Assembly: GCA_963707915.1 (NCBI GenBank)
Contig: OY970178.1
Location: 3,296,001-3,360,000, forward strand
Direction: 5' to 3'
Length of the DNA: 64,000 nt
Source: Candidatus Eiseniibacteriota bacterium
GTDB lineage: Bacteria > Eisenbacteria > RBG-16-71-46
In this document: piece by piece, positions 41,346 through 62,025 of the stretch
Layout of the letters: every line of letters begins with the position of its first letter
Position numbering within the stretch: the stretch's first letter is position 1
The notes under the pieces: generated by a model
The model's database searches: none
Seen by the model: only the letters and a program-made list of their open reading frames with translations
Told to the model about the DNA's origin: nothing
Made by a program: the position numbers and the translations under genes

Positions 41346-41689
41346 GGGGGGCGTCATCGTGCGCGGACGAGGCTGAAGCCCCCGCCGGCCCTGGCAGGGG
41401 CTCCGCGCAACGCTCGATGCGGCGCCGACGGAAGACGCCAGCTTGGGGGATGCCCGCGACCGAGCCCCATGATTATGCGGACTCGATCGTCCTGGCGCAA
41501 TACCCGCGTTTCGCTGGCCTGGACGGCCCATGGACCGCGTCGCGAAGATGCGAGATGGTCGTGGGATGCAGGGTCCTGTGCCTGGCCGCGACGCAGCCGG
41601 GGTCAAGCACCCCGCCGAGGAGTGGCCAGGTACAGGACCCTGCAGACCGCGGTCAGGTCGCTTTCGCAGCAGCGGGTCATGAATCGTCC

Positions 41690-41900
41690 AGGTTAGCTCT
41701 CGGTTCCTGTAGATCTGCTTCTTGACTTGTTCCTTCTTCAAGCTGCCGAAGAAGGACTCCGCCACCGCGTCGTCCCGGCAGTTCCCCTTCCGGCTCATAC
41801 TCGGCTCAATGCGATGGGAGCGACAGAATCGCCGCCCTGCATCGCTCCCGAACCGGTTGCCCTGATCGGAATGAATCAACGAATTGGTCAAAGCGGGTTG
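41690..41900 (-). pseudogene. IS3-family transposase fragment
   Basis: IHSDQG...[22 protein letters not shown]; related to the element at 22581. Confidence 0.8.
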
Positions 41901-41931
41901 ACGAAACCTCTCCAAGTCGTGCATCTACGCG

Positions 41932-41973
41932 GGCGGAGAGGTGCTGGAGCGGTTGAACAGGACGGTCTCGAAA
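41932..41973 (+). repeat. att-like direct repeat 1: 5' half of tRNA-Ser(CGA)
   Basis: GGCGGAGAGGTGCTGGAGCGGTTGAACAGGACGGTCTCGAAA, identical to 45208-45249; ends at the anticodon loop. Confidence 0.85.
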
Positions 41974-45207: not shown

Positions 45208-45249
45208 GGCGGAGAGGTGCTGGAGCGGTTGAACAGGACGGTCTCGAAA
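45208..45249 (+). repeat. att-like direct repeat 2: 5' half of tRNA-Ser(CGA)
   Basis: Identical 42-mer to 41932-41973, preceded by three GTAGCCA arm-like repeats at 45126-45159. Confidence 0.85.
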
Positions 45250-45450
45250 GCCGCTCGGAGATCAATCGCCTCCCAACCTGGGAAGTCCGCCAGCAGCACC
45301 TATTTGCTTGTGGCCTCAGCGAGTTACGCGCGCTGGGGCCGGTTTGTTTTCATGGCCTGGAGTGGTCACGAAGGGCCACGAGAGGACTTTCACGGGGTCA
45401 CAAAGGGGTCACCTTGCGGCCAGGCTTGGGGGGCGGTCATCGACTCCGGT

Positions 45451-45490
45451 TGTCTGTCATTTGCTGTCATTTGGTGTCGTGTGGTATCAT
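45451..45490 (+). promoter_or_regulatory. Promoter overlapped by four 10-bp tandem repeats
   Basis: TGTCTGTCAT/TTGCTGTCAT/TTGGTGTCGT/GTGGTATCAT; extended -10 TGgTATCAT lies 6 nt before the ATG. Confidence 0.6.
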
Positions 45491-45496
45491 GGTCCC

Positions 45497-47515: not shown

Positions 47516-47741
47516 GACGCCATCTCTCATCGGGTCATCACTGGGGCGGCCTCGGGCAGCCATGGCGGGGAAGCTCTGTCACTGCAGTCGGTGCAGTGCG
47601 GACATCACGATGGGAGCAAAGTGCTATGACGTCCCGCAACCCTCGAAGTCTTTTCCGAGGCCGCGACGCTTCTGCGCGACGTGCTTCGAGGCGGTCTTGG
47701 TGCAAACTCGGCAGGACCTGGCTGAGCTCAAAGATCTTTGA
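47502..47741 (+). CDS. Small Zn-finger protein
   Basis: CSRC...C...CATC; start overlaps the helicase stop. Confidence 0.7.
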   Translation: MPKGKTPSLIGSSLGRPRAAMAGKLCHCSRCSADITMGAKCYDVPQPSKSFPRPRRFCATCFEAVLVQTRQDLAELKDL

Positions 47742-47756
47742 TGGCCGGAGATTTCG

Positions 47757-49004
47757 ATGGGGCCAATCCTCGTTTTCGACAAGTCGTTCTTGCAGAGCAT
47801 CAATCCTGATGAAGCGGTGTGGCTTGACCACTTCTTCCTGACCAACATCACACCACTGTTCTTCATCGAGACCCTCGCGGATCTTGAGAAGGAGGTGCGC
47901 AAGGGACGTACTCCCGAGCAAGTGGTTGGGAATCTCGCCTACAAGACCCCCGACTTGAACTCGAAACCAAGCGTTCACCACACGCGGTTGTTGAGCGGCG
48001 AACTCAGCGGGCGGGCGCCTGTACCCATGGGCGAGGGACAGATCATCGTGCCGGGTGGGAAGCAGACCGTGCTCGATGGGAAGAGCGGCGTGTTCTTCGA
48101 GCAGTCGCCCGAGGAAGAGGCGCTGAGCCGCTGGCAGAAGGGGCAGTTTCTTGATCTCGAGCGCCAGCAAGCCAAGCAATGGCGCCGCGGCCTCTCGCTT
48201 CTTACTCCCGAGAAACAGCGCGAACTCTTCTCGCCGTGGTTTCAAACAGGGACACCGAATACGCTGGCAGACGTGAAGCTTGCGGCAGACGGGTTCATTG
48301 ACCAATCGGACCAGGAGCGATCCCTCTCGTTTGGCTTGGCACTTGTTGGGGTGAACCCTGCGGGACAAGCCGAAATCCTCGGACGCTGGCGCGCCTCCGG
48401 ACGACCGTCAATCGCTGTCTTCGCCCCGTACTTCCGGCATGTGTACGGCGTGGAGCTGTTCTTCTACCTTGGGCTCGCCGCGCGGCTGATCTCCGAGCGT
48501 CGGACAAATCACGTTGACCTTGCCTACCTCTTCTACCTGCCGTTCTGCATGGTCTTCACGTCCTCCGACGACCTGCACGCTGCGACGGTGCCCCTCTTCC
48601 TGCGCGACAACCAGACATTCGTCCCGGGTGCCGAGTTGAAGGCCGACCTCGGAGCACTGGATCGTCACTACAGTGCCTTCCCGGACGAAGCGAAGGCTCG
48701 CGGGTTGTACGAGCTCGCAGCCTGGCCGCCGGTGGATGATGCGTTTCTCGTGTCGAGACTGTGGGACGCCCACATGCGACCCGACTGGAGGGAGATCGCC
48801 GTCAAACCAGAGCCAGCGCCGGATAAGACGCGGGATGCGAAGCTCGTCGAGAGGCTCCGCGACCAATGGGAGGCGGGACGAGCGGCCCCAGAAGCCTCCT
48901 CGGGCAACTCGGGCGATGTCGACTACATGGTGGTCACGCGCAGAGTGGATATGAAGAAGGGAAAGTGGAATCGTTTTCCGCCAGAGGTGAAGCCCGACCC
49001 CTGA
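47757..49004 (+). CDS. Hypothetical protein, possible PIN-like nuclease
   Basis: 415-aa ORF with RBS. ILVFDKSFL, FIETLAD, VDLAYL and FTSSD resemble the PIN acidic residue layout (inference). Confidence 0.7.
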   Translation: MGPILVFDKSFLQSINPDEAVWLDHFFLTNITPLFFIETLADLEKEVRKGRTPEQVVGNLAYKTPDLNSKPSVHHTRLLSGELSGRAPVPMGEGQIIVPGGKQTVLDGKSGVFFEQSPEEEALSRWQKGQFLDLERQQAKQWRRGLSLLTPEKQRELFSPWFQTGTPNTLADVKLAADGFIDQSDQERSLSFGLALVGVNPAGQAEILGRWRASGRPSIAVFAPYFRHVYGVELFFYLGLAARLISERRTNHVDLAYLFYLPFCMVFTSSDDLHAATVPLFLRDNQTFVPGAELKADLGALDRHYSAFPDEAKARGLYELAAWPPVDDAFLVSRLWDAHMRPDWREIAVKPEPAPDKTRDAKLVERLRDQWEAGRAAPEASSGNSGDVDYMVVTRRVDMKKGKWNRFPPEVKPDP

Positions 49005-49127
49005 TGCCCGCCGTCGACAACCTTCTGAGAGTGCCACGCTCTCTAGATGATGCCGTGACCTGTTGGTTTGCGCAGCGTAGGCTTCGTCCGGGTGTCTTGA
49101 CCTCAGCCCCTCATCGAGGTGGATCCA

Positions 49128-50096
49128 ATGATCTCTGCACTAGATGCAGTGTATCCCGAAGACGGCCTCTGCCGCATCCTCGCGTTGGACGGTGGTGGGG
49201 CGAAGGGCTTCTATACCCTCGGGGTGCTCAAGGAAGTGGAGGGGTTGCTCGGGTGTCATCTCCACAAACGCTTTGATCTCGTCTTCGGGACGAGCACCGG
49301 TGCCATCATCGCCTCCCTGATCGCGCTTGGACACAGCATTGACGAGATCCACGCGTTGTACAAAGCCCACGTTCCTCGCGTCATGGCCGAGCGCTCCCCC
49401 CGGGGTAGGGCAGCGGCCCTCGAGCGCTTGACCAAGGAGGTCTTTGGAACGAAGTCGTTCGAAGACGTCAGGACGGGTGTCGGGGTCATCGCGACGAAGT
49501 GGTCGATCGAAAGACCGATGATCTTCAAGGGAAGCGTTGCGCAAGCCCACGGCCGTAGAGGGACATTCACGCCAGGGTTTGGGGTGACGATCGCCGACGC
49601 GGTCAAAGCTTCCTGCTCTGCCTATCCGTTCTTCGATCGCACCACCTTGGTGACGTCTTCGGGGGATAGGGTCGAACTCATCGACGGAGGATATTGCGCG
49701 AACAACCCGACGCTCTACGCGATCGCGGATGCGGTTGCCGCGCTGGGGAGAGACACCAAGGACCTGCGGGTTGTGAGCGTGGGGGTGGGAAGTTACCCCG
49801 AGCCAAAGCCGGGATTGAAGATGTGGCTGGCGAAGAAATACCTTGTTAGCGTCCAGCTGCTGCAGAAGACACTCGAGATCAACACGCAATCAATGGATCA
49901 GCTCCGAGCGATTCTGTTCCGCGAGGTCCCCACTATTCGGATCAGTGACGCATTCGAGCACCCGGAGTTGGCCACGGACCTCTTGGAGCATGACCTCGCA
50001 AAGCTCAACCTCTTGCACCAACGTGGGAGGGAGTCATTTGCGTCGAGAGAAGACCAGCTGAAGGCCTTTCTCCTACCTAGCGGGACGACAGCATGA
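49128..50096 (+). CDS. Patatin-like phospholipase, CBASS effector (CapV/CapE-like)
   Basis: LDGGGAKG, GTSTG and DGG motifs; overlaps the CD-NTase start (ATGA). Confidence 0.9.
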   Translation: MISALDAVYPEDGLCRILALDGGGAKGFYTLGVLKEVEGLLGCHLHKRFDLVFGTSTGAIIASLIALGHSIDEIHALYKAHVPRVMAERSPRGRAAALERLTKEVFGTKSFEDVRTGVGVIATKWSIERPMIFKGSVAQAHGRRGTFTPGFGVTIADAVKASCSAYPFFDRTTLVTSSGDRVELIDGGYCANNPTLYAIADAVAALGRDTKDLRVVSVGVGSYPEPKPGLKMWLAKKYLVSVQLLQKTLEINTQSMDQLRAILFREVPTIRISDAFEHPELATDLLEHDLAKLNLLHQRGRESFASREDQLKAFLLPSGTTA

Positions 50097-50986
50097 CAAT
50101 CCCAGAAGCGCAGTTTGAAACCTGGGCGCATCAAGGCTCAATCGCACAGTCACGCGACACCTATGCCTCAGTGGGTCGTGTATTGCGCGCGTCGGACACC
50201 CCGTACTCCGGGAAGGCGTACCGTGTGTTCCTGCAGGGATCTTATGGCAACGACACCAACATCTATGCGGAGAGCGACGTCGACGTCGTGATCTGCCTGG
50301 ACGAGTGCTGGGGCAGCGATCTCTCGGAGTTGTCAGGGCCGGAAAAGGCCGCGTACGAGAGCTCTCACGTGACGGCGACGTATTCTCATGTGGACTTCAA
50401 GCGCGATGTGCTGGATGTCCTCAGGGCGCAGTACGATGACGACGTTGAGGCTGGGGACAAGGCCATTGCGATTGCCGCTAACGGCAACCGCAGAAGATCG
50501 GACGTCATTGTCTCTACGGAGTTCAGGCGCTACAGGCGTTACGTGAACGCCACCGACCAGGACTACGTGACCGGAATCTGCTTCTTCAACAAGTCCGGAG
50601 CGCGCATCGAGAACTACCCCCGGCAGCATTCAGAGAACCTGACACGTAAGCATCAAAGCGCGGGAAATGGGCTGAAGCCAATGATTCGGGCCCTTAAGAA
50701 CCTCAGGGGGAGGCTGGTCGACGACGGCGTGATTGAGTCAGATCGTGCGCCGTCCTACTACCTCGAGGGACTGCTGTACAACGTGCCAGACGAACTGTTT
50801 GTCACAAGCCTCCAGCAGACGTTCGTAAACAGCGTCAACTGGCTACAGTCTGAGGCGGACAAGGCGAAGCTCTTGTGCGCGCATGAGTTGTACTATCTCC
50901 TCTGGGATGACTCTCCGACATCGTGGCCAAGAACTCATTGCGACGAGTTTCTTTCGGCCGCGACTGACCTGTGGAACGAGTGGTGA
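50093..50986 (+). CDS. cGAS/DncV-like nucleotidyltransferase (CdnE-like)
   Basis: LQGSYGNDTN...SDVDVV, NYPRQH, APSYYLEGLLYNVP. Confidence 0.9.
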   Translation: MTIPEAQFETWAHQGSIAQSRDTYASVGRVLRASDTPYSGKAYRVFLQGSYGNDTNIYAESDVDVVICLDECWGSDLSELSGPEKAAYESSHVTATYSHVDFKRDVLDVLRAQYDDDVEAGDKAIAIAANGNRRRSDVIVSTEFRRYRRYVNATDQDYVTGICFFNKSGARIENYPRQHSENLTRKHQSAGNGLKPMIRALKNLRGRLVDDGVIESDRAPSYYLEGLLYNVPDELFVTSLQQTFVNSVNWLQSEADKAKLLCAHELYYLLWDDSPTSWPRTHCDEFLSAATDLWNEW

Positions 50987-51075
50987 GCAAGTACTCGGGC
51001 CGGTAGTCTCGGACTTCCGTCATTGTCCGTTTCGATCTTCAAGTCCGGCAGGTAGAAGTCCGTGGTCTCGAAGAG

Positions 51076-51108
51076 CCAAGTTCGAAGACGGACGCAAGTG
51101 GTCCGCCA
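51076..51108 (-). repeat. Recombinase-tail repeat copy D (diverged)
   Basis: CCAAGTTCGAAG...GCCA, 33 nt; encodes WRTTCVRLRTW followed by LFETTDFYLPDL. Confidence 0.6.
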
Positions 51109-51483
51109 CTCACAGGAGAGTTTGGGCCAAGCGAATACATGTCGCCCCCGTGGGTTACGACCCGCGGGGGCGATCTTGTGTCTTGGCAGATCTGGGCGCC
51201 TTGGGGAGCGTTCGGGCAGCCGAAGGAACCGCAGAATGGGACAAGAACGGTGACAAGAATCAGAGATCACTTGCGCCGCGATCGACGGCCGTGCGCTAGG
51301 CCGGGTGCCCGGCGTTCGTCGAGGACTCGGGGCATGGGATTCCGGCGGGTGGCGTCTTCTGGTGGTCACGGATGGACACGAGAGAACAGCGAAGGACCCG
51401 TTAGGCCGCCAAAGTAGCAACCATTTGGTAGCCAGAATCCGGCTACCAGAGCAGCGGTCTAGGCGACCGCGTGGCCGCAACCC

Positions 51484-51511
51484 TTGACGAGCCCGCTGGG
51501 GGGTGTATGCT
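51484..51511 (+). promoter_or_regulatory. Sigma70-like promoter of the lexA-like gene
   Basis: TTGACG-N16-TATGCT, about 10 nt before ATG 51522. Confidence 0.5.
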
Positions 51512-51521
51512 GCTGTATGCG

Positions 51522-52154
51522 ATGACTCTCCGACCTCTCACCCCCAAGGAATTCCAAGCTCTCCGGCACATCCGGAACTGCCTGGCACATGGCCAACCCG
51601 CGCCCACCGTTCGCGAGCTAAAGGACCTGCTGGAGTACCGGTCACCACGCTCCGCGGCGGTAATTCTGGAGCGGCTTGCTGCCCATGGGTTCATCCGCCG
51701 CCGTCCGGATGGCCAGCTCCAGCTGCTCCGCGATCTGCCGGAGGGAGCCGCCCATGCGCGTACCGTGCCCGTGCCGCTCGTGGGCGCGATCGCCTGCGGC
51801 GCGCCGCTTCTGGCCGAACAGAACATCGAGGCGATGATTCCGGTCTCGCTCTCTCTCGCCCGTCCGCCGCACAACTACTTCATGCTTCGCGCGAAAGGCA
51901 ACTCTATGAACCGCGCGGGCATCCAGGATGGTGATCTCGTGCTCGTCCGACAGCAGCCAACTGCCCAGGACGGCGACCGGGTGGTCGCCCTGATCGATGA
52001 CGAGGCTACGGTCAAGGTGCTGCGACGAGCGGGCGATGCGATTGCTCTCGAACCGCGTTCAACGAACAAGCGGCACGAGCCCATCCTCGTGACTACGGAT
52101 TTTCAGGTCCAGGGCGTTGTCGTCGGAACTATTCGTGCCCCGCGTATGAGGTAA
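51522..52154 (+). CDS. LexA-like repressor (wHTH + S24 autopeptidase)
   Basis: PTVREL...L...GFI, VGAIACG cleavage loop, GNSM (Ser) and ATVK (Lys). Confidence 0.9.
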   Translation: MTLRPLTPKEFQALRHIRNCLAHGQPAPTVRELKDLLEYRSPRSAAVILERLAAHGFIRRRPDGQLQLLRDLPEGAAHARTVPVPLVGAIACGAPLLAEQNIEAMIPVSLSLARPPHNYFMLRAKGNSMNRAGIQDGDLVLVRQQPTAQDGDRVVALIDDEATVKVLRRAGDAIALEPRSTNKRHEPILVTTDFQVQGVVVGTIRAPRMR

Positions 52155-52163
52155 TCTTGCACC

Positions 52164-53036
52164 ATGGCCATTTCCGAACAACAACTCGCGAGCTGGGCCA
52201 AGGGGCCGGGTGCCACCGAGCAGGAGCGTTGCGACACGACTGTGCGCCGCATCACTGAGGCCCTGCGTCCGTTCTACGGTAGCCGAGTGACCATCTTCCC
52301 GCAGGGCTCGTATCGGAACCGGACGAACGTGCGGCAGGACAGTGATGTAGACGTGGCGGTGGTCGAGAGCTCCGCCTACATTGGCGATACGTCGCGGATG
52401 GGACCTGAGGCTTTGGCGCGGTGGAACGCGATGTCTCCAGCCAGCTACACATTCGCGCAGTTGAAGGCGGACGTGCACCAACAACTCACCGCCGCCTTCG
52501 GGCCACGTGTTGAACGCCGTAATAAGTGCATCTTCGTACCTGAGACCGCCAGCGGCGTTGACGGTGACGTTGTCCCCGCCTTCGAGTACCGGCTGTTCGA
52601 CTACAACGGCTACAAGACGGCCAGCGGCATCGCTTTCTACGCTGACCGGGGCGGATTGTTCACCAGCTTTCCGCAGCAGCACTACGATAACGGGGTGGCG
52701 AAGAACGACCGGACGCAGCGGATGTACAAGCGAGCGGTGCGCATCCTCAAGAATGCTCGGAACACCCTCGTAGAGAACGGGCAGCTGGGGGACACGTTCG
52801 CGCCGTCATTCTTCCTTGAATGCCTTACGTACAACGCGGCCGACCGAGTGTTCTTGGCAAGCACCTATACCCAAAGCATCAAGCAGGTGATCGAGGACCT
52901 TTGGGAAGCAACCAAGCCCAGTCGCAGCGGGAGCCTCGTGGAAGTTAGCGAAGTGAAGCCGCTCTTCACGGCCGAGCACACCGCGGACGAGGCACGCACG
53001 TTCCTGCGAACCGCCTACACGTTCATCGGGTTCTGA
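52164..53036 (+). CDS. cGAS/DncV-like nucleotidyltransferase (CdnE-like), second copy
   Basis: QGSYRNRTNVRQDSDVDV, DVVPAF, FPQQHYDNG..KN, PSFFLECL.YN. Confidence 0.9.
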   Translation: MAISEQQLASWAKGPGATEQERCDTTVRRITEALRPFYGSRVTIFPQGSYRNRTNVRQDSDVDVAVVESSAYIGDTSRMGPEALARWNAMSPASYTFAQLKADVHQQLTAAFGPRVERRNKCIFVPETASGVDGDVVPAFEYRLFDYNGYKTASGIAFYADRGGLFTSFPQQHYDNGVAKNDRTQRMYKRAVRILKNARNTLVENGQLGDTFAPSFFLECLTYNAADRVFLASTYTQSIKQVIEDLWEATKPSRSGSLVEVSEVKPLFTAEHTADEARTFLRTAYTFIGF

Positions 53037-53038
53037 GC

Positions 53039-53668
53039 ATGGGCATTCAACTCCATCGCGCAAGCCATTTCGTCCTCTTCATCTTAGTGCTGCCGCTCCT
53101 CAGCTTGGCGTTGGCTTGGGAATGCAGCCGAGTCGTGGCGATGGTGGTTCCCCCTGGCTGGGCATTTGCCGTCGATTCGGTCGGCACGATCGGCGCCTAC
53201 GGTCTTCTGTTCAAGGCCTTTGACCTCTGGCTTTGGCGGTGGCCGGCCTTTCGCTCCCTGGGCATCGTTCAGCCCCCTCTCATGGCAGGCCGGTGGGTCG
53301 GTTCATTGCGTTCCTCCCATGACAATCATGAGACCCGCCACGAGGCCGTGGTGGAAGTACGCCAGAGCTTCACTTCTGTGCGCGTGGCCATGTACTTCGC
53401 GGGCTCGCGATCGGCCAGCCTGATCGCGGGGTTTGCGCAGGAGGCGGATGGTGGCGTGGCGCTCCACTACGAGTACCAGAACGTGCCGTCCGTTGATGCT
53501 TCGCGGACCATGCACATTCACTACGGCACGGCCACGCTCCAGTGCGTCCCGGGACGGCCGCGGATGGAGGGGCACTACTACAACTGGGGACGTGACGAGA
53601 GAGGGCACTACGGAGTGATGGAGTTCTCCTTCGAGAGCGCTAAACTACTGGGCCGGTTCTCCCAGTGA
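53039..53668 (+). CDS. CBASS 2TM + beta-barrel effector (Cap15-like)
   Basis: Two N-terminal TM helices, LWRW, GRW.G.L.S, YEYQN.P, HYG, GHYY. Confidence 0.8.
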   Translation: MGIQLHRASHFVLFILVLPLLSLALAWECSRVVAMVVPPGWAFAVDSVGTIGAYGLLFKAFDLWLWRWPAFRSLGIVQPPLMAGRWVGSLRSSHDNHETRHEAVVEVRQSFTSVRVAMYFAGSRSASLIAGFAQEADGGVALHYEYQNVPSVDASRTMHIHYGTATLQCVPGRPRMEGHYYNWGRDERGHYGVMEFSFESAKLLGRFSQ

Positions 53669-53722
53669 CGCTCACGAACTGAGTCCACAACGCATTAACT
53701 AACTAAGAGAAGGAGATAACGT

Positions 53723-53980
53723 ATGGACACGCAGGACAAAGTAAAGACCGTCACGATCATCGTGGAAGGCACTCCGCACGAGTGGCCCAAGGGTGAGATC
53801 ACCTACGCGGAGGTCGTCACTCTTGAAGTGCCGGACTACGCGCAGCACCCGGAGATCACGTACTCGGTGACCTACAAGCGCGGGCACGGCGAGAAGCCCG
53901 AAGGGATTCTCGTGAAAGGCGGCTCGGTCAAGGTAAAGGACGGGATGATCTTCCGTGTTTCAGAAACTGGTCAGTCATAA
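53723..53980 (+). CDS. Ubiquitin-like (multiubiquitin domain) protein
   Basis: AAGGAG RBS; TIIVEG..HEW..ITYAEVV..YSVTY..G.L..G.SVKVKDGMIF.V..TGQS. Confidence 0.8.
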   Translation: MDTQDKVKTVTIIVEGTPHEWPKGEITYAEVVTLEVPDYAQHPEITYSVTYKRGHGEKPEGILVKGGSVKVKDGMIFRVSETGQS

Positions 53981-55142
53981 CGACGACTTGGGTCGTTTGG
54001 TCGACAAGGGTTATGCCGTCGGCTTCGACCCGGGGCTTCTGATTGTTCGTGATATCCCGTACCTGGATGACCAGAAACGACTGCAGATTGGTGCGATTGT
54101 CGCGAAGCTGGTTCTCATCGACGACGACCGAGTCAGCCAGGACGATCACCAGATCTACTTCGCTGGCTCTGCCCCTTGCGACGTCAACGGCTCGGCGATC
54201 CCCAATCTCGCTGGCGGCTCCGCCAGCATCCCGATGAGCGACGCAAACAAGGACGTGGTCGTTCAGCGGTCGTTCTCTAACAAGCCTCGTGCCACGGGGA
54301 AGTTCGACAACTTCTTCGACAAGATCGAGAGCTACGTAGCGATCATTTCGGGTCCAGCCATGGAGCTGTACCCCGATGCGACTCCCTTTACGTTCCACGT
54401 CGTGACGACCTATCCCGGGTCGGTATTCAAGTTCCACGACACCCTTACAAGCAGAGCTGAAATCGGAGATCTGTCCGGGAGGTTCAAGGACGACATCATC
54501 GCGGTCATTGGACTTGGTGGCACCGGCGCGTACCTGCTGGATCTTCTGACGAAGACGCAGGTGCGCGAGATCCGCGCGTTCGACCACGACCACTTCTACG
54601 TGCATAACGCCTTCCGGTCTCCAGGGCGACTTCAATCAGGAGAACTCGGAAGGCTGAAAGCGGACGTGTACCGGGACCGCTACGACTCGTTTCGAACCGG
54701 GCTCTCGATCGAGAGGAGACTGATTGACGCCTCCTCGGTGGACGCGTTGGACGGCGTGACCTTCGCGTTCGTGTGCGTCGACAAGGGCTCGTCGCGGGCG
54801 GGCGTATTCGATGCCCTTCTTTCCAAGCGCATCCCGTTCATTGACGTCGGGATGGGCCTGAAACGCAGAGACGGCAGCCTGAACGGAATGCTGCGCGTCA
54901 CCTACTTCTCGTCGGAGGATGGTGGGCAGGTGCGCGCGAAGGGACTCGCTGAACTGGCCGACACGCCGGACGACCTCTATCGAACCAACATCCAGACCAG
55001 CGAGTTGAACGCGCTGAACGCTGCCTTGGCCGTCGTGAAGTTCAAGAAGCTCCGAGGCTTCTACTTCGAGGAAACGCCCTACTACCATCTTCTCCACGAC
55101 GTTGGAGACTCCACGATGGTCGGGGAATCGGAGCTGACATGA
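53955..55142 (+). CDS. DUF6791-like N-terminal domain fused to ThiF/E1 adenylation domain
   Basis: IAVIGLGGTG, FDHD...HNAFRSPG, FVCVD, FIDVGMG, NIQTSELNA. Confidence 0.85.
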   Translation: MFQKLVSHNDDLGRLVDKGYAVGFDPGLLIVRDIPYLDDQKRLQIGAIVAKLVLIDDDRVSQDDHQIYFAGSAPCDVNGSAIPNLAGGSASIPMSDANKDVVVQRSFSNKPRATGKFDNFFDKIESYVAIISGPAMELYPDATPFTFHVVTTYPGSVFKFHDTLTSRAEIGDLSGRFKDDIIAVIGLGGTGAYLLDLLTKTQVREIRAFDHDHFYVHNAFRSPGRLQSGELGRLKADVYRDRYDSFRTGLSIERRLIDASSVDALDGVTFAFVCVDKGSSRAGVFDALLSKRIPFIDVGMGLKRRDGSLNGMLRVTYFSSEDGGQVRAKGLAELADTPDDLYRTNIQTSELNALNAALAVVKFKKLRGFYFEETPYYHLLHDVGDSTMVGESELT

Positions 55143-55540
55143 GGTTCAGGCTCCAGCGAGTTGAGTACATGCCCAAGACCCTGGAGCCGGGGGTCCTGTA
55201 CGTCTCAGAAGCTTTCGGCACAGCAGCGCACCTCTGCGCCTGCGGTTGCGGCTCCAAGATCAGGACACCACTCGGCCCCACTGAGTGGCACGTCGAGGTT
55301 ACGAAGCGGGGACCAAGCCTGTATCCCTCCGTCGGGAACTGGCAGAAGCCCTGTCAGTCGCACTACTGGATTCGCGAGGGCAACGTGCGGTGGGCAGCGA
55401 AATGGACATCGGAGGAGATTGCCACGGGTCGCAGGCACGAGGAGGAACGCCGACACGCGTACTACGACTCCGGTCGTCCAGCGCCCGGGAATATCCTGGC
55501 GAGATTCTGGTGCTGGCTGAAGCGTCTGCTTGCTCGCTGA
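55139..55540 (+). CDS. DUF6527-like protein
   Basis: LEPGVLYVS, HLCACGCG, SLYPSVGNW..PC.SHYWI. Confidence 0.8.
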   Translation: MRFRLQRVEYMPKTLEPGVLYVSEAFGTAAHLCACGCGSKIRTPLGPTEWHVEVTKRGPSLYPSVGNWQKPCQSHYWIREGNVRWAAKWTSEEIATGRRHEEERRHAYYDSGRPAPGNILARFWCWLKRLLAR

Positions 55541-55584
55541 CCCAGCTTGTCCACAGAAGGTGCCACTCTAGTGTCGTACCCCCT

Positions 55585-55704
55585 CTAGGCAGCTTCGCTG
55601 CTTCGTGGCACACTGACTTCACCCTTGAGCCGGTCGAGCTTCGGCAGCGGAATCCACGCGTGTTTCTTGAGCCAAGTTCGAACGTCGTCCCTCATGGCGC
55701 ACCA
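55585..55704 (-). repeat. Recombinase-tail repeat copy A
   Basis: Encodes WCAMRDDVRTWLKKHAWIPLPKLDRLKGEVSVPRSSEAA*, homologous to the recombinase C-terminus. Confidence 0.9.
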
Positions 55705-55747
55705 GCGTCGTTTTGGTGCATCCACCCCCACGAAAAGTGGATAACGA

Positions 55748-55783
55748 GCAGACCGACCGCCAATCAAGGCGGTTTTGTTGTTT
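55748..55783 (+). terminator. Intrinsic terminator-like hairpin with T-tract
   Basis: ACCGCC-AATCAA-GGCGGT followed by TTTGTTGTTT. Confidence 0.55.
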
Positions 55784-56007
55784 GCGGTAGGGGGGTGGAC
55801 GTGACAACAGAGACGCGAAACGGTGAGTTATACCCAGAAGCGAGGACGTTCGAACTCGCGGCAAGAGTTCGAAGCGACTACTTGACCAGCCCCTGAGGAC
55901 ATGGTTGGGTGACTAAGTGGATTGTTCGTTTCGCACAACATTCAATTCGTTCCTCCCTTGCCTGATGCTCGCACGCATGGTGTGCGCAGCAGTCCAGGGG
56001 AGGAACG

Positions 56008-56274
56008 ATGCGCAGGTTGCGGTTGCTTCCGATAACGTTCGGGCCGTCCTATGAGGTCGCACCGACCCCCGGCACGAAAGCTGCTGCCACCTGTACGGTC
56101 GTCGTCGCGGCGGTCGTGCTGGTAGCGGTTGCAGTTGCCGTGGTGAGATGGCCGTGGGTCGCCATGCTCGCAGGTGCCGTGGCCGCATTCACCTGGGGAC
56201 GGAAACACTACGGTGGTGACGCAATCATCGTGGGTATCGTGCTCCTTGTCGCGGGGTTGTCTCTGCTGAGGTAG
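56008..56274 (+). CDS. Small membrane protein
   Basis: GGGGAGGA RBS and 2-3 hydrophobic segments. Confidence 0.55.
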   Translation: MRRLRLLPITFGPSYEVAPTPGTKAAATCTVVVAAVVLVAVAVAVVRWPWVAMLAGAVAAFTWGRKHYGGDAIIVGIVLLVAGLSLLR

Positions 56275-56366
56275 GTGCAATCGCACCTTCCAGAGTTATC
56301 GCTCGCGGGTCGATCTCTTCGGAGTTCGACCCGCTTCTTCTTGTCTCATCAACTCAGATGACGGCC

Positions 56367-56585
56367 ATGGAACATGACCAACGTTTTGCTCTGGGGCTGA
56401 CCCAGGCTGAGGTGGATCGACTGCGCGACATTATCCATCGGACTCGTGGCGTCACGTTATCGGAGCAAGAAGCGTGGGTGTGTGCAATCCGGCTTCTCAG
56501 TCTCGGACTGACGACTCTGAAAGCGACCGCGCCGAAGGAAGACATCCACAAGGATGAGACATGCGTGGTGCGTCCGCCCCTCTAG
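56367..56585 (+). CDS. Small protein homologous to 59226-59432
   Basis: Shares QRFALGLT.AEVDRLRDI..RTRG..L...EAW..AI.LLSLG with the gene upstream of the recombinase. Confidence 0.8.
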   Translation: MEHDQRFALGLTQAEVDRLRDIIHRTRGVTLSEQEAWVCAIRLLSLGLTTLKATAPKEDIHKDETCVVRPPL

Positions 56586-56701
56586 GCAGCAACGCCTTTT
56601 CGTGGCAAACTATCTTCGCTCTTCAAACGATCAAGCTTGGGCAGCGGAAACCATGGAGTTTTCTTGAGCCAGGTTCGAACGTCCTCCACGATGGAGCACC
56701 A
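56582..56701 (-). repeat. Recombinase-tail repeat copy B
   Basis: Encodes WCSIVEDVRTWLKKTPWFPLPKLDRLKSEDSLPRKGVAA*. Confidence 0.9.
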
Positions 56702-56767
56702 AGAACGAATCTTCGAACAAAAACACAAATCCAGCTTGATTCCATTAATCAGAGCTGAGTTCGAACT

Positions 56768-57631
56768 ATGAGACACAAGTTTCCAGACAACTTTGTAACT
56801 ATTGGCCATTTTGGCTTAGAGCAGCATTACTCAAAACATGCTCCACACGACATTCTTACAAAGTTACGCCATACATTAGGTTCCCTGATTGGATCTGAAG
56901 GAGACGTGGTGTATGTTTTTATCCTCATAAGAAAGCTTCTAGAGTTAGATAAACATAAACGAGTCTTTCCGACGTTGTCGCTGATATGTGATTGGATAGC
57001 ACATGTGCGGCTCGATAGAAATAGCACTGGTTACAAAATCATCGAGAATATAGATCGGGAACTCTATTTCAAATACGCCGTGCTTGATAAACGACCGTAT
57101 GATCGGAATAGGACAAAAGCACAGGAGCGGCATATAGAACGTCAACTTGCGGGCTTATGGACATTGCGTGGCGAGTTGAGATTCTTCTTACGCCATTATC
57201 ATCTCCCGATTACGATTGTAAATAAAACCCCATCATGGAACCGATTACGTCGTTTTCTGTTTAATGCTCTCGCGAATAGTCCCCTCACAGTTCAAACAGC
57301 TGACGATCTATTAGTAATAAAAAGCATCTCATTCACTTCTGTTTGGCACGAAGCTCAACCCCAATCATCCAGGGCAAGAAATCTATTTAACGATCCGCCA
57401 TACCCCAGATGTAGAATTCTAGTTAAGGATGGGATAATGCTGCCAGGAACTGAGCATATGAATCCAGAAGATGAGCAGATTATAGAGGTCTCATTAAAGA
57501 CTGTAGACATTCGCGACTTTATTTCCGAGGAGGAGTTTGTTAAACTTCAAAAGACGATGAAGGATCTTCCAGAACATTTCTTCAAAGACGATCCCAAAAC
57601 TACCGGAACCACCCGAACCAAATCATCTTAG
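56768..57631 (+). CDS. AT-rich hypothetical protein
   Basis: 287-aa ORF, much lower GC than its neighbours; IRKLLE...CDWIAH motif. Confidence 0.75.
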   Translation: MRHKFPDNFVTIGHFGLEQHYSKHAPHDILTKLRHTLGSLIGSEGDVVYVFILIRKLLELDKHKRVFPTLSLICDWIAHVRLDRNSTGYKIIENIDRELYFKYAVLDKRPYDRNRTKAQERHIERQLAGLWTLRGELRFFLRHYHLPITIVNKTPSWNRLRRFLFNALANSPLTVQTADDLLVIKSISFTSVWHEAQPQSSRARNLFNDPPYPRCRILVKDGIMLPGTEHMNPEDEQIIEVSLKTVDIRDFISEEEFVKLQKTMKDLPEHFFKDDPKTTGTTRTKSS

Positions 57632-59187
57632 CTTTCAACGAGACGATCCAACCGAGGTAGTGGCAACCACTTATCTTTCTTTAACCAAGTTCGAACGTCG
57701 TCCCTTAAGGCGCACCAATTGCTAATGAGCCCTTGTCCTTCGATGAAGGAGAAGGGTTCGTTGGCTTTGTAGAGCGGTTCCTTGCCTTCGACCGCGAAGT
57801 TCGAAGCGACGGCCTGGACAATTTCCCGTCGTTGAACTCCGACCCCGCGCTCGAAGGCCGCCGCGCAGCGGTTCGTGAACTGGAAGAGCTCGGTCGCGCG
57901 CTGGAGGTACTCCTCCGGCTCGGTCGGCGGAACCTCGAGCTGCAGCTTGAGCTTTGCCTGTCGCTCCAAGATCTCAAGCCTTCGCTTCTCGAAGAGGTCC
58001 TCGTCTACCTGCCCGCGCAGCCGAAGCGTGAGCAGCGTTTCGCCCTCACGCAGGGACGCGCCGAGGGCCTCCTGGAGCGAGCGGTGTGAGGCTGTGTCGG
58101 TCACGGTCTCCGCCTCCAAAGTGTGCTTCAGGTTCTCCGTCACCCATCCGACCACTTCCTCCGGCACGGCCACGGCATGCAGGGTCTTCTGGATCGCCGT
58201 CTCGAAGTCCGGCTCCGGAATGCAGGTCGCATGCGGACAGGGCGTGCTTCTCCCAAGGCCATGACAGCGGTAGTACACGTAGGTTCGACCTGACTGCTTG
58301 CGGTGCTGCTCGCCGGTCAGAAGTCCGCCACACTTGCAACGCAGTAGCCCGCCGTAGGGGAACTCGTGACGCGCCGGGCGGGCGCGCCCTGGCCGACCAA
58401 GGATACCGGCCGCACGCTCGAACTCCGCCGGGGTGACCATCGGCTCATGGCCGCCGCGGTAGCTCTCACCGCTGCGCAGCTGGATGAGCCCCATGTAGTA
58501 GGGATTCTGGAACATCCGGTAGAGCATCGTGATGCACATCGGCCGGCCGCCCAGTCGCGCCGTCTTGCGCGTGCGGAAGCCCCACTCCTCGGTTGCCAGC
58601 TTGAGGATCTGCTTGGGGCGGAGGCTATCGGTGAGCACGAGGTCCCACATCTTGCGCACGAGCGTGAACCGCTCGGGGTCTTTCACGACGGTCTTGGTCG
58701 CATGGTCCTCGATGTACCCCAGGGGCGGGCGGAAGTTCGGCCAGCCGCGCTGGAACCGCGCACGGTTGCCGCGCCGCACGTTTTGCCGCAGATCGTCGAT
58801 GAACTTGGTGGCGATGCCGAGCTCGAAGTTGCCCATGAAGCGGTCATTGCCGTCAGCGGTGTACGTCCGATCCGAGGTGATGACGGTGAGCTTGTGGTCG
58901 GCCAGCGCTTGCAGGACCCGGCCGGTGTCGGCGTGGTTGCGCGCCAGCCGGTCGAGCTTCCAGCACAGCACGGTCGCGATCTCGCCCTGGGACACGCGGC
59001 GCATCAGTTGATCGAAGACCACGCGGCCCGGAGCTTTAGCCGAGCGCGACTCGGAGAGGATCTCCGCGACCTGGTGCCCATGGCGCAGCGCCAGGAGTTT
59101 GAGCTCTTGGACTTGGGAGTCGATGGAGAGGACCTGCCGATCCTCGGATTCGCTGGATTTCCTAGCGTAGATGACACATTGCGGCAT
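57628..59187 (-). CDS. Large serine recombinase
   Basis: IYARKSSE (catalytic Ser), ESRSAK, WKLDRLARN, PPLGY, NPYY.G, HEP, Zn ribbon CKCG...YYRC, coiled coil. Confidence 0.95.
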   Translation of the reverse strand: MPQCVIYARKSSESEDRQVLSIDSQVQELKLLALRHGHQVAEILSESRSAKAPGRVVFDQLMRRVSQGEIATVLCWKLDRLARNHADTGRVLQALADHKLTVITSDRTYTADGNDRFMGNFELGIATKFIDDLRQNVRRGNRARFQRGWPNFRPPLGYIEDHATKTVVKDPERFTLVRKMWDLVLTDSLRPKQILKLATEEWGFRTRKTARLGGRPMCITMLYRMFQNPYYMGLIQLRSGESYRGGHEPMVTPAEFERAAGILGRPGRARPARHEFPYGGLLRCKCGGLLTGEQHRKQSGRTYVYYRCHGLGRSTPCPHATCIPEPDFETAIQKTLHAVAVPEEVVGWVTENLKHTLEAETVTDTASHRSLQEALGASLREGETLLTLRLRGQVDEDLFEKRRLEILERQAKLKLQLEVPPTEPEEYLQRATELFQFTNRCAAAFERGVGVQRREIVQAVASNFAVEGKEPLYKANEPFSFIEGQGLISNWCALRDDVRTWLKKDKWLPLPRLDRLVES

Positions 59188-59225
59188 AGAGGTCTAGGTA
59201 GTGATGCCTCAAGTTCGAAACGCAG

Positions 59226-59432
59226 TCAAGAGGGAGGACCTTCGAACTCGCGGGGTTTCCTTGAAGAGGTGGCCTGGAGGATGGTCCAGCCGAGGGAGAG
59301 AAGTTGAATCGCCTTGGCCCACGCCTCCTCGCGCGTGAGCTCCAGCCCGCGCGTGCGCCGCAAGATGTCGCGGAGGCGGTCCACCTCCGCTTCGGTCAGG
59401 CCAAGCGCGAAGCGTTGCGTTCGAGCATCCAT
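59226..59432 (-). CDS. Small protein upstream of the recombinase (candidate accessory or directionality factor)
   Basis: 68-aa ORF with a paralogue at 56367-56585, which supports coding status. Confidence 0.75.
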   Translation of the reverse strand: MDARTQRFALGLTEAEVDRLRDILRRTRGLELTREEAWAKAIQLLSLGWTILQATSSRKPREFEGPPS

Positions 59433-59596: not shown

Positions 59597-59878
59597 ATGT
59601 TGGTGCAATACACCAAGCGAACGTGGCGAAACCGGCCGCGCTTCCCCAACAAGATCCGCGAGTACCGCCTCAAGGCCGGCATCTCGCAGAGCAAGCTCGC
59701 CGCCCTGCTCGGCCGCGGCCGCAACGCGGTCTCGTCCTGGGAGCGTGGACTGTCGCTGCCAAACGTGCCGCGTCTCCTACGCATGGCGAAGATCCTCGGC
59801 ACACTCTCCGAGGCGCTCTACTTCCAGTTCTACTCCACCCAGGGAGCAGATGGTGAGCTCAGCGGCACTGCGGCATGA
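59597..59878 (+). CDS. XRE-family HTH regulator
   Basis: NKIREYRLKAGISQSKLAALLG.....VSSWERG...P. Confidence 0.88.
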   Translation: MLVQYTKRTWRNRPRFPNKIREYRLKAGISQSKLAALLGRGRNAVSSWERGLSLPNVPRLLRMAKILGTLSEALYFQFYSTQGADGELSGTAA

Positions 59879-60360
59879 GGGAGCGTCTCTTGCGCTGGTT
59901 CATGGCCCACGCCAACGGTCGCGGCGTGGTGCTGGGCCGAAGCGAGGTCATGGAGGCGGAGCTGGACGCAGCGTCTGACGTGCTTCAACAGGAGCTCACA
60001 GCATTGGAGCGGGAGGGAGTCGTCGAGATCATCGCCCCGCTACCGTTCCTTGTCCTTCGACTCAAGAAATGGTCTGGCAGGGGCCAACAAAGCACCTTTG
60101 CCTATAGCTCTCTGCTATCAAACAATCAATTGATTGAAAGCAACAGCCATAGGCACGATCCACTCCTCCACGAGATCCTCGAGACACTCGGGGAGACGGA
60201 CGTGAAGGCGTTCGCCCCGGTGCTCGAGCACTACTCCCCGCAGATCATTCGCACCGCTCTGAGAAGGGTCCGCCGCGCCCGCGGCATCCGGAAGAGCCGC
60301 ACCGCGCTCTTTCGCCACCTGCTCCCGCGACTCGCGCAAGCCGAACCCGAGCGCAACTAG
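59875..60360 (+). CDS. wHTH protein with C-terminal IRKSRTALF motif
   Basis: ATGA overlap with the XRE gene; L..LEREGVVEI wing; paralogous to the next gene. Confidence 0.65.
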   Translation: MRERLLRWFMAHANGRGVVLGRSEVMEAELDAASDVLQQELTALEREGVVEIIAPLPFLVLRLKKWSGRGQQSTFAYSSLLSNNQLIESNSHRHDPLLHEILETLGETDVKAFAPVLEHYSPQIIRTALRRVRRARGIRKSRTALFRHLLPRLAQAEPERN

Positions 60361-60368
60361 CCCTCCCC

Positions 60369-60899
60369 ATGTCCTCGCTCCAACCCATCACCCTTACCCT
60401 CGATCGCCGCATCCTCGAGCATCCGCGGGCCTACCACCTGCGACGCATGCGCGCGGGACTCTGGCTCTACCTCGACCTCTTGGCCCGGCTCCCGGCCGAC
60501 GCTGAGACGTTCGAGGTGGAGCCCGCGGCGGTCGGGCGGGACATGGGGCTCCCGGAGGGCACGGTCCGCTCCTGGCTCGGGCACCTGCGAAAGGCCGGCT
60601 ACCTCGACGCCGTGCGCCTCAACGGCAAGGTCCGGGTGACGATCAAACGGGCCGCAGCGCCGGAGACCCCGGCAGAACCCCCGACGCCGACACGCTTCTT
60701 CACGGTCGCCAAGCTCCAGCGAGCGCTCGGCGAGCCGGGCAACGCCGAGGCCTTCGAGGCCGCGCTCAGCCTCTACCCGGACGACGGTCGTGAAGCGCGC
60801 CCTCGCCGGCACGCTGGCGGTGCCCGAGACCCAGATCCGTCGCTCACGCACCGCGCTCTTTCTTTACCTCCTACAACACGCCATGCCCAAGAAGACTGA
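60369..60899 (+). CDS. wHTH protein with C-terminal IRRSRTALF motif (frameshift ~60787)
   Basis: LWLYLDLL, VGRDMGLPEGTVRSWLGHLRKAGYL; C-terminal motif lies in the alternative frame. Confidence 0.7.
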   Translation: MSSLQPITLTLDRRILEHPRAYHLRRMRAGLWLYLDLLARLPADAETFEVEPAAVGRDMGLPEGTVRSWLGHLRKAGYLDAVRLNGKVRVTIKRAAAPETPAEPPTPTRFFTVAKLQRALGEPGNAEAFEAALSLYPDDGREARPRRHAGGARDPDPSLTHRALSLPPTTRHAQED

Positions 60900-61400
60900 C
60901 ACCATCCTCGCCCTCGATCCCGGTCTCCGCGACCTCGGCTACGCCGTGCTCCACGGCCGCCGCCTCGTGGCCAGCGGCGTGCTCGCGCTGCGGCGCGTCC
61001 CGAAGGCAGAACGTCTCGCGCACAGCGCGCAAGCACGTGCGCACGTGGCTGCGAACGCACCGTCCGCAGCGTCTGGTCGTCGAGAAGACCTACCGCCATC
61101 CGGTGCCGTGGCTCGATCGAGCTCCACCGGCTCACGCGCAGGCCCGGAACCTCGCCACCCGCCAGCACACCGCCTTCGCCATGTACTCGCCGCAGACGCG
61201 TCCGCGCGACCGTCGCCGGCAACGGCAAGGCCAAGAAGCCCGAGGTCGCCATCGCCGTCGCGCATCCGCTTCCCGCAGCTCCGGGTCTACCTCACGCAGG
61301 ACCGGCGCTGGAAGGAAGCGTACTGGCAGAACATGTTCGACGCGTCGCGCTGGCGCTCCATCACCAAGCAGCGACGCAACCGCCCTCCCGCAGCCGGTGA
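60883..61400 (+). CDS. RuvC-like RNase H-fold nuclease 1 (multiple frameshifts)
   Basis: ILALDPGLRDLGYAV, LVVEK, GNGKAKK.EVA, YWQNMFDA. Confidence 0.7.
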
Positions 61401-61515
61401 TCCGGCCGACCCTGGCGCCTCCGCCTTGCCGAGCGCCACTGTCTCGGAAGGGGTCCGCAAGGGACCTCCGACGAGCAGCCCTCGGGAGGGCATTTGATTC
61501 ACTACACACTCACCC

Positions 61516-62025
61516 ATGAACACACCAAGACCATCCTCGGCATCGACCCCGGCACGAAGGAGATGGGCATCGCCGTGCTTCGCGGCCGAAAGCTGCTCGC
61601 GTACGGCGTGCACACGCTCCGCAACGGCGAGCGGCCCTACGACGTGATCGGCCAGGCCCGGCGGGTCGTCTTGGAGTACCTCGAGCGCTATGCCCCGGAG
61701 GTGGTGGCGATCGAGGCGCCGCTGCATGTTGCCGACCAAGCGCGCGGCGATCCTCTCGGTCATCGCGCAGGAGCTGCGACAGAGGGCGAATGAACTCGGC
61801 CTCGAGGTCCTTGAGCTCACGCCGCAGGAGGTGCGGCAGCGGGTAGTCGGGAACCCGCGCGCGACCAAGATTGACGTCGCGGAGGCGCTGGTGGCACGGG
61901 GGTTCGAGGAGCTCAAGGATCTTGTGCCAAAGCGACCGACCCGGGCAGCCTTGGGACTCAGGCCGGGCCAGAAGTACTGGCTCCACATGTTCGATGCGCT
62001 GGGGCTCGCTTGGGCCATCACCTGA
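61516..62025 (+). CDS. RuvC-like RNase H-fold nuclease 2 (frameshifted)
   Basis: ILGIDPGTKEMGIAV, VAIE, GNPRATKIDVA, HMFDALGLA. Confidence 0.75.

Follow-up and report, generated by a model that had tools for sequence, protein, structure and literature searches.

In the composite islands of the staphylococcal cassette chromosome (SCC), the serine recombinases that insert cassettes are of the Ccr type and the docking site is the 3′ end of rlmH; cassettes that lack a recombinase, stand in tandem, and are rich in defence genes are mobilised (PMC11470126, Nat Commun 2024). We describe here a locus that resembles these islands and differs from them in its docking site. It lies in a 64,000-nucleotide stretch (the window; positions 3,296,001 to 3,360,000 of contig OY970178.1, assembly GCA_963707915.1) of a single-contig, 3.62-Mb genome of Candidatus Eiseniibacteriota, and consists of Rec, a large serine recombinase gene that has no second copy in this genome, followed downstream by an array of cargo modules bordered by copies of the 3′ end (tail) of Rec itself. 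The data support, in outline, an SCC-like build-up of cassettes through a serine recombinase, unusual in that docking takes place in the reading frame of the enzyme itself; specifically, we consider it probable (roughly 60%) that recombinase-less defence cassettes with replacement tails were docked by site-specific recombination at the junction between the recombinase body and its tail, the newest cassette standing nearest to Rec.

The SCC and SCCmec elements (CcrAB, CcrC) and the Rec array share i) a large serine recombinase, with cassettes docked in the 3′ end of a gene; ii) cassette borders that each repeat the 3′ end of the docking gene, the Rec array having three such orphan tails; and iii) recombinase-less cassettes that stand in tandem and are rich in anti-phage defence. 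They differ in that i) the docking gene is rlmH in SCC, but here it is the recombinase's own open reading frame (ORF), so that each insertion changes the C-terminus of the enzyme; ii) the SCC recombinases belong to the Ccr family, whereas Rec is not a Ccr, its scores against the NCBIfam models (CcrB 42.6 bits, CcrA 37.7, CcrC 31.3) all lying far under the respective cut-offs of 900, 700, and 900; and iii) excision has been demonstrated for SCC, whereas the Rec array is known from sequence comparison.

Sedentary chromosomal integrons are reportedly described in a preprint as biobanks of defence genes, and the first-pass annotation of the window had proposed a serine-recombinase analogue of an integron. 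The analogy survives as far as the stacking of cassettes goes: both systems have a recombinase gene with a docking site alongside, a co-oriented growing array with the newest unit apparently nearest the recombinase, and defence cargo. Otherwise the likeness is loose, since the cassettes here include regulators and are convergent with the recombinase gene; integrons use an IntI-type tyrosine recombinase, folded attC borders, and mostly promoterless single-gene cassettes, whereas the Rec array has a serine recombinase, conserved coding tails, and convergent cassettes of 1-6 genes with their own regulators and no common promoter. We conclude that the array works more like SCC composite islands than like an integron.

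Attachment sites within a recombinase gene have precedents in the integrase genes of Myxococcus phage Mx8 (IntP) and of the SSV type, which extend across attP (PMC4383910). As in the Rec array, the attachment site there lies within the integrase ORF and recombination alters or splits its C-terminal end, but those enzymes are viral tyrosine recombinases and Rec is a serine recombinase. We know of no description of integrase-less cassettes stacked on Mx8 IntP or SSV-type integrases. With the phage large serine integrases (A118/LI, Bxb1, phiC31), Rec shares domain order, a coiled-coil insert, and short sites with a central crossover; unlike theirs, the Rec site lies inside the gene and the array sites all share one right-half type, and the wider family of Rec targets tRNA 3′ ends. 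Tycheposons are said to consist of tandem cargo units with partial copies of the target-gene end between them, and to use tyrosine recombinases and tRNA-fragment borders; they and other tRNA-anchored islands thus resemble the array in its tandem units separated by partial copies of a target-gene end, and differ in both enzyme and border. Nor is the array of the Islander type, as its tail borders are not tRNA fragments (18/35 at best), although the surrounding 45-kb element does have tRNA-Ser 5′-half borders.

A literature search, with subscription journals outside its range, turned up SCC tandem cassettes and integron defence cassettes and no account of arrays founded on the tail of a serine recombinase itself; nor does the accessible portion of Durrant et al. 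2022 contain one (PMC10083194). If our reading is true, the array would represent a third enzyme-and-site design for banking and exchanging defence genes, after integrons and SCC elements, and one found in little-studied environmental phyla. It would also be a natural example of a serine integrase with its site in its own frame and a new C-terminus after every event, which bears on site choice and direction in a class of enzymes widely used in genome engineering; and the sharp, conserved tails are a simple search key for cassette borders, and hence for new defence systems, in metagenomes.

The recombinase and its repeated tails

From Rec outwards, and in window coordinates, the array comprises the following features (GC3, G+C content of third codon positions).

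57628-59187, minus strand: Rec, large serine recombinase gene, 519 aa (Pfam domains, family alignment, AlphaFold2 model)
57628-57717, minus strand: attached tail t0, codons 491-519 plus stop (GC3, TTA codons, predicted helix)
56702-57627, plus strand: cargo of module A, the AT-rich ORF 56768-57631, 287 aa, 41.6% GC (ORF list, GC content)
56582-56701, minus strand: orphan tail t1, 39 codons plus stop (57.8 bits to the tail profile, boundary at TGG)
55705-56581, unstranded: cargo of module B, a paralogue of the Rec partner protein at 56358-56585 (plus) and a small ORF at 55942-56286 (minus) or 56008-56274 (plus) (hhalign, ORF list)
55585-55704, minus strand: orphan tail t2 (55.1 bits; attached tail of the same recombinase in metagenome runs X1 and X3)
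51109-55584, plus strand: cargo of module C, five assigned genes, 5-6 in all (Pfam, PADLOC)
51019-51108, minus strand: orphan tail t3, of a different subtype, WRTTCVRLRTWLFETT..LPDLKIET (44.6 bits)
45250-51018, plus strand: distal module D (Pfam, PADLOC)

The Rec product has the domain order and coiled-coil insert of large serine recombinases (Pfam, AlphaFold2), with a Resolvase domain at residues 5-148 (PF00239, E 2.6e-20), a weak Recombinase domain (19.5 bits, slightly below the cut-off of 21.1), a Zn_ribbon_recom domain (28.2 bits against a cut-off of 25.3), and a YARKS catalytic motif (Y7 A8 R9 K10 S11) that is invariant across 11 relatives. In the AlphaFold2 model (mean pLDDT, the predicted local distance difference test score, 74.8), long helices occupy residues 343-447, the body (codons 1-490) includes a predicted disordered, low-confidence linker at 463-489, and the attached tail t0 begins with a predicted helix at 491-504; given this linker and helix, the tail looks, in the model, like a module separable from the body. 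Rec is the only recombinase at the array and is of the serine type. Just 1 of the 80 viral-contig loci that match it extends beyond residue 450, indicating that the clade is not one of typical phage integrases; a single-protein Rec query of the genome contigs found 2 loci only.

The Rec tail, WCALRDDVRTWLKK..., is repeated three times downstream of Rec on Rec's own strand (t1, t2, and t3), as the first-pass annotation had noticed. Against a family-tail profile t1 scores 57.8 bits, t2 55.1, t3 44.6, and the attached t0 40.8, and beyond these four tails the best match in the whole 3.62-Mb genome is 8.9 bits; the anchor CCARGTTCGAA is observed 4 times against 0.05 expected. Doubtful as t3 is by eye, this diverged fourth copy is real; its subtype is that of the tail of the family recombinase G035:C8, and also of G035:C21 tail_c. 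An exact 33-nt block had been claimed for all four tails: its length and both CCA ends are indeed fixed, but the block is not exact, only 17/33 positions being invariant (CCA.GTTCGAA......C......GG..C.CCA), with pairwise identities of 31/33 for t0/t2, 27/33 for t1/t2, 26/33 for t0/t1, and 18-21/33 for t3.

The repeats correspond to the last 26-39 codons of the recombinase, and their homology begins exactly at the Trp491 codon (TGG). Pairs of window tails are identical at 7-11/30 nt upstream of TGG and at 17-28/30 downstream, which bears out the abrupt stop at a Trp codon described at first pass; across 10 orphan/attached pairs from 6 genomes the corresponding values are 7-13/30 and 17-30/30. 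TGG is the exact start of 3/3 window orphans and of 5/6 orphans of relatives. Over 78-125 nt the tails are 76-78% identical, with longest identical runs of 11, 14, and 21 nt; their differences are distributed over the codon positions as, for example, 7/2/10, and are synonymous in 6-7 of 12-15 differing codons, and from this third-position bias and these synonymous changes we conclude that the tails evolved as coding sequence. Tail GC3 climbs with distance from Rec, from 0.50 in t0 to 0.57 in t1, 0.70 in t2, and 0.71 in t3. Rec as a whole has a GC3 of 0.81, and its body has no TTA codons (0/482); t0, with GC3 0.50 and 2 TTA codons, has a codon usage like that of the AT-rich cassette A, and probably arrived together with it.

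Each tail directly follows a cargo module (Pfam, PADLOC), and the stacked units lack a recombinase, both as first described: a profile of 11 family members matches the window orphans only at positions 487-521, the next best match having E > 6, and between 41 and 57.6 kb it finds tails alone and no recombinase body, so that no decayed body stands beside any of these orphans. Apart from Rec itself, the whole window is free of recombinase-body fragments. Two ideas about the ends that precede the orphans were tried and rejected, namely that they are decayed ends of the Rec body (global alignment against shuffles, z = 1.0, -1.75, and -2.25), and that TTCGAA is a conserved motif in them (t1, t2, and the L030 orphan have it upstream, and 5/8 orphans lack it). 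The window has 20 copies of TTCGAA where 9.3 are expected; 11/20 lie within 55677-59246, among them two immediately upstream of the start of Rec (59214, 59241) and several in cassette ends, at positions that are not conserved in relatives.

Junctions at the Trp codon in metagenomes and relatives

A search of metagenome runs found none that contains this genome, the shares of the stretch's sequence words being 0.14, 0.11, 0.11, 0.06, and 0.00. We placed contigs of four public runs (X1-X4, from three studies) on 50900-59300. A contig of X1 (study P1) passes through t2 (55585-55695) and resumes at 57709-57757, skipping 2013 bp with 9 nt shared at the joint (55695->57709); in X3 (study P2), 55487-55704 is followed by 30 letters that match the end of the Rec body (57718-57747) at 29/30. 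Cargo C and the Rec body are also present in both runs, at about 93-97% identity. Since the body is there joined directly to t2-C, cassettes A and B (55705-57717), a clean, Trp-codon-bounded block of 2013 bp without a recombinase, were either inserted here or lost there. The X1 tail is of the t2 type all the way to the junction, and t0 and t2 differ at nt 10-12, so that the exchange point lies before tail nt 10; a crossover at the TTCGAA core (nt 23-28 of the tail) is rejected by the same junction. In X2, contigs over t3 diverge at 51102 and 51109, and one of them runs into in-frame letters resembling a recombinase body end.

In the metagenome-assembled genome G035, a Rec homologue is cut off by the end of contig C3, which contigs C20 and C21 each overlap by 44 nt; C20 and C21 are identical for 127 nt through TGGTGC and only ~80% alike thereafter, leading into two tails with different downstream genes. 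The result is a three-way assembly fork at the Trp codon of the recombinase (L045 end, L036 start, and L035 end, for C3, C20, and C21), reflecting either two identical recombinase copies or a mixed population. With the body joined to t2 in X1 and X3 and to two tails in G035, the proposal that the recombination site lies inside the recombinase ORF is upheld, as is the suggestion that a tail can become the enzyme's C-terminus, t2 being attached in X1 and X3 and t0 in the window.

The first-pass annotation predicted multiple orphan tails with variable cargo in relatives, and these exist. We examined 3.6-20 kb of downstream DNA at each of 16 loci of the tail-bearing clade (the window, L023-25, L027-30, L033, L034, L039-43, and L045 with its two continuations; the G074 pair, whose spacing is that of L033 and which may be the same genome, was counted once). 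At least one same-strand orphan tail lies downstream in 7/16: the window (3 orphans), L025, L033, L034, L045/C21, and, in degenerate form, L029 and L030. Orphan homology starts at TGG in all seven, the codon being TGA in L029. The cargo between the tails consists of a LexA-like gene and a type III cyclic oligonucleotide-based antiphage signalling system (CBASS), plus a second recombinase, in L034; a LexA-like gene and a TPR-GreAB-C-PIN protein in L033; redox and metal genes in L025; a UvrD-like helicase in G035:C21; and a DUF5677 protein in L030. A homologue of the first three genes of cassette C stands directly behind the tail of a different recombinase in L038, and 13/206 genomes in a sample of the phylum have a tail match.

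Two of these loci have features of their own. At L029 (1892-2074; G054:C1) the recombinase's own tail is immediately followed by a degenerate tail of the type of the G054:C30 recombinase, from the same genome, and the TGA stop of the first gene occupies the position of the second tail's Trp codon. At L034 (16699-18557) the second family recombinase is tail-less, ends 8 codons short of the Trp position, and is flanked by tails that are 94% identical to each other, 230 bp separating its stop from the orphan tail.

A more distant set comprised 80 metagenome loci at 29-58% identity. Among the 33 with at least 3 kb of downstream sequence, a direct repeat of the recombinase 3′ region was found downstream in 9 and upstream in 1; a broader tail profile found 29 attached tails and 14 orphan matches in the 80 loci, all of the latter on the recombinase strand (14/14: 10 downstream, 4 upstream, 0 opposite). 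In 23/70 complete ORFs of this set a convergent tRNA gene overlaps the recombinase 3′ end, and 26/26 tRNA genes within 400 nt of these recombinases are convergent; antisense read-through into the tRNA gives ends like W-x4-DSNP, in which the CCA end gives W and the T-loop DSN. The 23 loci show a serine-recombinase family targeting tRNA gene ends, a capacity stated to be unknown for serine integrases in the 2014 Islander paper (PMC4383910). At L087 the recombinase is fused to tRNA-Ser and the opposite end of the element, 7.2 kb upstream, has a tail of the native type, as expected if the attachment site is at the body/tail junction and integration splits the gene.

Could the window tails themselves be tRNA fragments? 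This was rejected, the best ungapped match to the genome's 53 tRNAs being 18/35, and only the first 7-9 nt of the tails match an antisense tRNA end: t0 and t2 start TGGTGCGCC, identical to the antisense end of the genome's tRNA-Lys(ctt) at 9/9, and t3 starts TGGCGGA, like tRNA-Ser antisense ends. TTCGAA lies at nt 23-28 from TGG in the tails versus nt 18-23 in antisense tRNA ends, that is, 5 nt farther out. For a Listeria phage integrase, the zinc-ribbon motif is shifted 5 bp between attP and attB (PMC3783163). By analogy, the 5-nt shift seen here is a hint, statistically weak (a 6-nt match among 53 tRNAs), that the first ~29 nt of the tail may be an attP-type half-site.

Growth of the array and competing explanations

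We propose that in the Rec family the recombination site would span the junction of the body and the last ~30 codons, with the crossover at or beside the TGG of Trp491. Read in the direction of Rec, a module would consist of a tail, its cargo, and a non-conserved end; modules without a recombinase would be spliced in successively at the body/tail junction, the newest closest to Rec, each incoming tail becoming the new C-terminus of the enzyme and displacing the former tail downstream as an orphan, to give the order Rec body / t0-A / t1-B / t2-C / t3-D. The catalyst would be Rec, perhaps with its small partner protein; the cassettes would move as circles; one half-site would be the first ~29 nt of each tail, TGG...TTCGAAC; and the docking end would be Rec's own 3′ end, taking the place of rlmH in SCC islands.

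The following observations weigh against docking at the Trp codon: i) all array sites have the same tail-type right half, which is not the standard attP x attB pairing; ii) an X4 contig joins cargo C to a t1-like tail (55579->56577, 14 nt shared) at the 3′ end of the tail block, the far end from TGG, so that a crossover at the Trp codon alone is insufficient; iii) in the contigs of the four runs (shares of at most 0.14) we found skip joints only and no circular cassette junctions; iv) the ends before the orphans have no conserved motif and no resemblance to the end of the Rec body; v) 9/16 close loci have no orphan within the 3.6-20 kb examined; and vi) the array lies inside a 45-kb, tRNA-Ser-bordered element without a recognisable integrase.

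A broader proposal, which strikes us as possible though somewhat doubtful, is that the end of the family's own recombinase gene is an open docking site that captures, shuffles, and releases recombinase-less, tail-bearing defence cassettes, with a tail half-site descended from a tRNA 3′ end. Some cassettes would then also bring a copy of the partner protein; paired sites would share one half-site type, breaking the attP x attB rule of serine integrases; and the tail half-site would still mimic the tRNA 3′ end that was the family's ancestral target. Such a system would be a serine-recombinase counterpart of the integron in which each capture rewrites the enzyme.

At first pass, tandem insertion of related elements with later backbone deletion was offered as an alternative. 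In this view, whole recombinase-bearing elements would have integrated, each in the tail site of the previous one, and later lost their recombinase and backbone, and the cassettes would never have been mobile alone. Something of the kind does occur in the family, where L034, between its two 94%-identical tails, has a tail-less second recombinase accompanied by a partner gene of its own; an orphan tail in G024 retains about 48 body codons (residues 443-509), in distant relatives the entire element integrates at a tRNA gene, and cassette B of the window retains a partner-like gene. We nonetheless think stacking and trimming unlikely for the window array, as separate deletions would not share one end codon, whereas 3/3 window orphans and 5/6 orphans of relatives start at TGG; the window has no body remnant; the difference between the window and X1/X3 is a clean 2013-bp block without a recombinase; and the partner-like gene of cassette B is on the strand opposite to that of the expected relic.

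Ordinary homologous recombination or gene conversion between similar tails, without a dedicated site-specific reaction, might be suspected from tails that are 76-78% identical over 78-125 nt and from the X4 joint, which falls in 14 nt of shared sequence at the distal end of the tail. We find this explanation very improbable, given that the longest identical runs are just 11, 14, and 21 nt, that the X1/X3 junctions lie in the first 9 nt and outside the 21-nt run, that the same boundary recurs in unrelated genomes with other tail subtypes, and that exchange between tails cannot bring in new cargo. It is scarcely credible, finally, that a different enzyme builds the array, such as the integrase of the 45-kb tRNA-Ser element, with the recombinase tail merely its target: the island does have a second, unrelated set of borders, the tRNA-Ser 5′-half repeats, with a 3.3-kb recombinase-less unit between two of them, but these borders have no sequence in common with the tails, the Rec family has orphan tails beside it in many genomes and on its strand only (14/14), and no other recombinase is recognisable at 42-90 kb.

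Cargo, partner gene, and surrounding island

The cargo of the array includes two CBASS systems (in C and D), an E1-like operon, and an unassigned AT-rich gene. The genes of modules C and D, in which CD-NTase denotes a cGAS/DncV-like nucleotidyltransferase, are as follows.

51471-52154, plus strand, C: LexA-like S24 repressor, first gene (Pfam)
52164-53036, plus strand, C: CD-NTase (Pfam; PADLOC cyclase E 1.2e-82)
53039-53668, plus strand, C: Cap15-type effector with two transmembrane segments (PADLOC E 2.8e-53)
53955-55142, plus strand, C: E1-like ThiF/DUF6791 protein (Pfam)
55139-55540, plus strand, C: DUF6527 protein (Pfam)
45308-47515, plus strand, D: helix-turn-helix helicase (Pfam)
47757-49004, plus strand, D: 415-aa ORF
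49119-50096, plus strand, D: patatin effector (Pfam; PADLOC phospholipase E 1.1e-161)
50093-50986, plus strand, D: CD-NTase (Pfam; PADLOC cyclase E 4.5e-122)

All cargo genes converge on Rec, and cassette C is led by its own LexA-like repressor; cargo GC is 0.416 in A, 0.587 in B, 0.613 in C, and 0.601 in D. Behind the CBASS genes of cassette C, an 85-aa ORF (53723-53980) precedes the E1-like gene, and 53955-55540 may be a ubiquitin-like conjugation module, PADLOC giving no match for the E1-like and DUF6527 genes. The 287-aa ORF of cassette A, whose stop overlaps the Rec stop by 4 nt, has no match in Pfam, PHROGs, or PADLOC, and is left uncovered by the contigs of all 4 metagenome runs compared. 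The 75-aa protein of cassette B is a paralogue of the Rec partner (hhalign probability 98.6, 63% identity to the partner family); its gene lies on the strand opposite to that of the Rec partner, its stop overlaps the t1 stop by 4 nt, and the orphan tail of L034 has the same geometry.

Upstream of Rec lie the partner gene and genes linked to Rec.

59229-59432, minus strand: small partner protein, 68 aa, just upstream of Rec (conserved in 8 aligned loci)
59875-62021, unstranded: Rec-linked backbone genes at 59875-60360 (plus), 60369-60899 (plus), and 61287-62021 (minus), with homologues beside Rec homologues

A partner-like ORF is present less than 450 nt upstream, on the same strand, in 47/76 metagenome loci, and also in close relatives. 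The partner protein has no family match in Pfam, PHROGs, or the ESM Atlas (best Atlas score 0.80) and is a candidate accessory or directionality factor; a predicted complex of partner and Rec had a median score of 0.46, and a control with an unrelated chain scored higher, at 0.59. Backbone homologues adjoin Rec homologues in L045, L046, L064, L034, L051, and L033. In G035 a block of HerA-like, relaxase-like, and 386-aa genes lies downstream of the recombinase, versus upstream in the window, as if the same circle had been opened at another point. Relative to G035:C3, the window (62282-70938) and the L031 backbone have an extra block upstream of Rec, comprising a B12-binding radical SAM (S-adenosylmethionine) protein, a methyltransferase, a short-chain dehydrogenase, and a NACHT-like ATPase.

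Rec and its array belong to a low-GC island that extends from about 41.5 to 92 kb in window coordinates. A tRNA-Ser(cga) gene lies at window+90450-90539, and its 5′ half is repeated twice to its left.

45210-45249, plus strand: tRNA-Ser(cga) 5′-half copy, left border of the 45-kb element (40/40 identical to window+90449-90488)
41896-41973, plus strand: older tRNA-Ser(cga) 5′-half copy with 39 nt upstream, outer border of the island (88% over 78 nt to window+90411-90488)

The three tRNA-Ser(cga) copies diverge right after the anticodon loop, and the 5′-half repeats indicate that two units were inserted in tandem in tRNA-Ser. One is a 3.3-kb unit without a recombinase, encoding a PtuA/AriA-like ATPase and a 292-aa ORF; the other is the 45-kb element (45250-90449), with Rec and the array together with relaxase-like, HerA-like, ParB, and restriction genes, whose borders enclose the Rec array, making the tail array internal to a larger mobile element. 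No integrase for the tRNA-Ser borders is recognisable; a 386-aa ORF beside tRNA-Ser has no match in Pfam, NCBIfam, or PDB sequences, and Rec is the only recombinase recognisable at 42-90 kb, a transposase fragment sitting just outside at 41.7-41.9 kb. This fragment, on the left edge of the island (41680-41924, minus strand), matches the C-terminal part of an rve-type transposase (PF00665, E 2.1e-5, below the cut-off). The segment 45250-45301, which adjoins the second tRNA-Ser half copy on its right, ends ...GAAGTCCGCCA and in antisense starts TGGCGGAC, as t3 and tRNA-Ser ends do; judging from its letters, it may be a very decayed fifth tail or a degenerate tRNA 3′ half.

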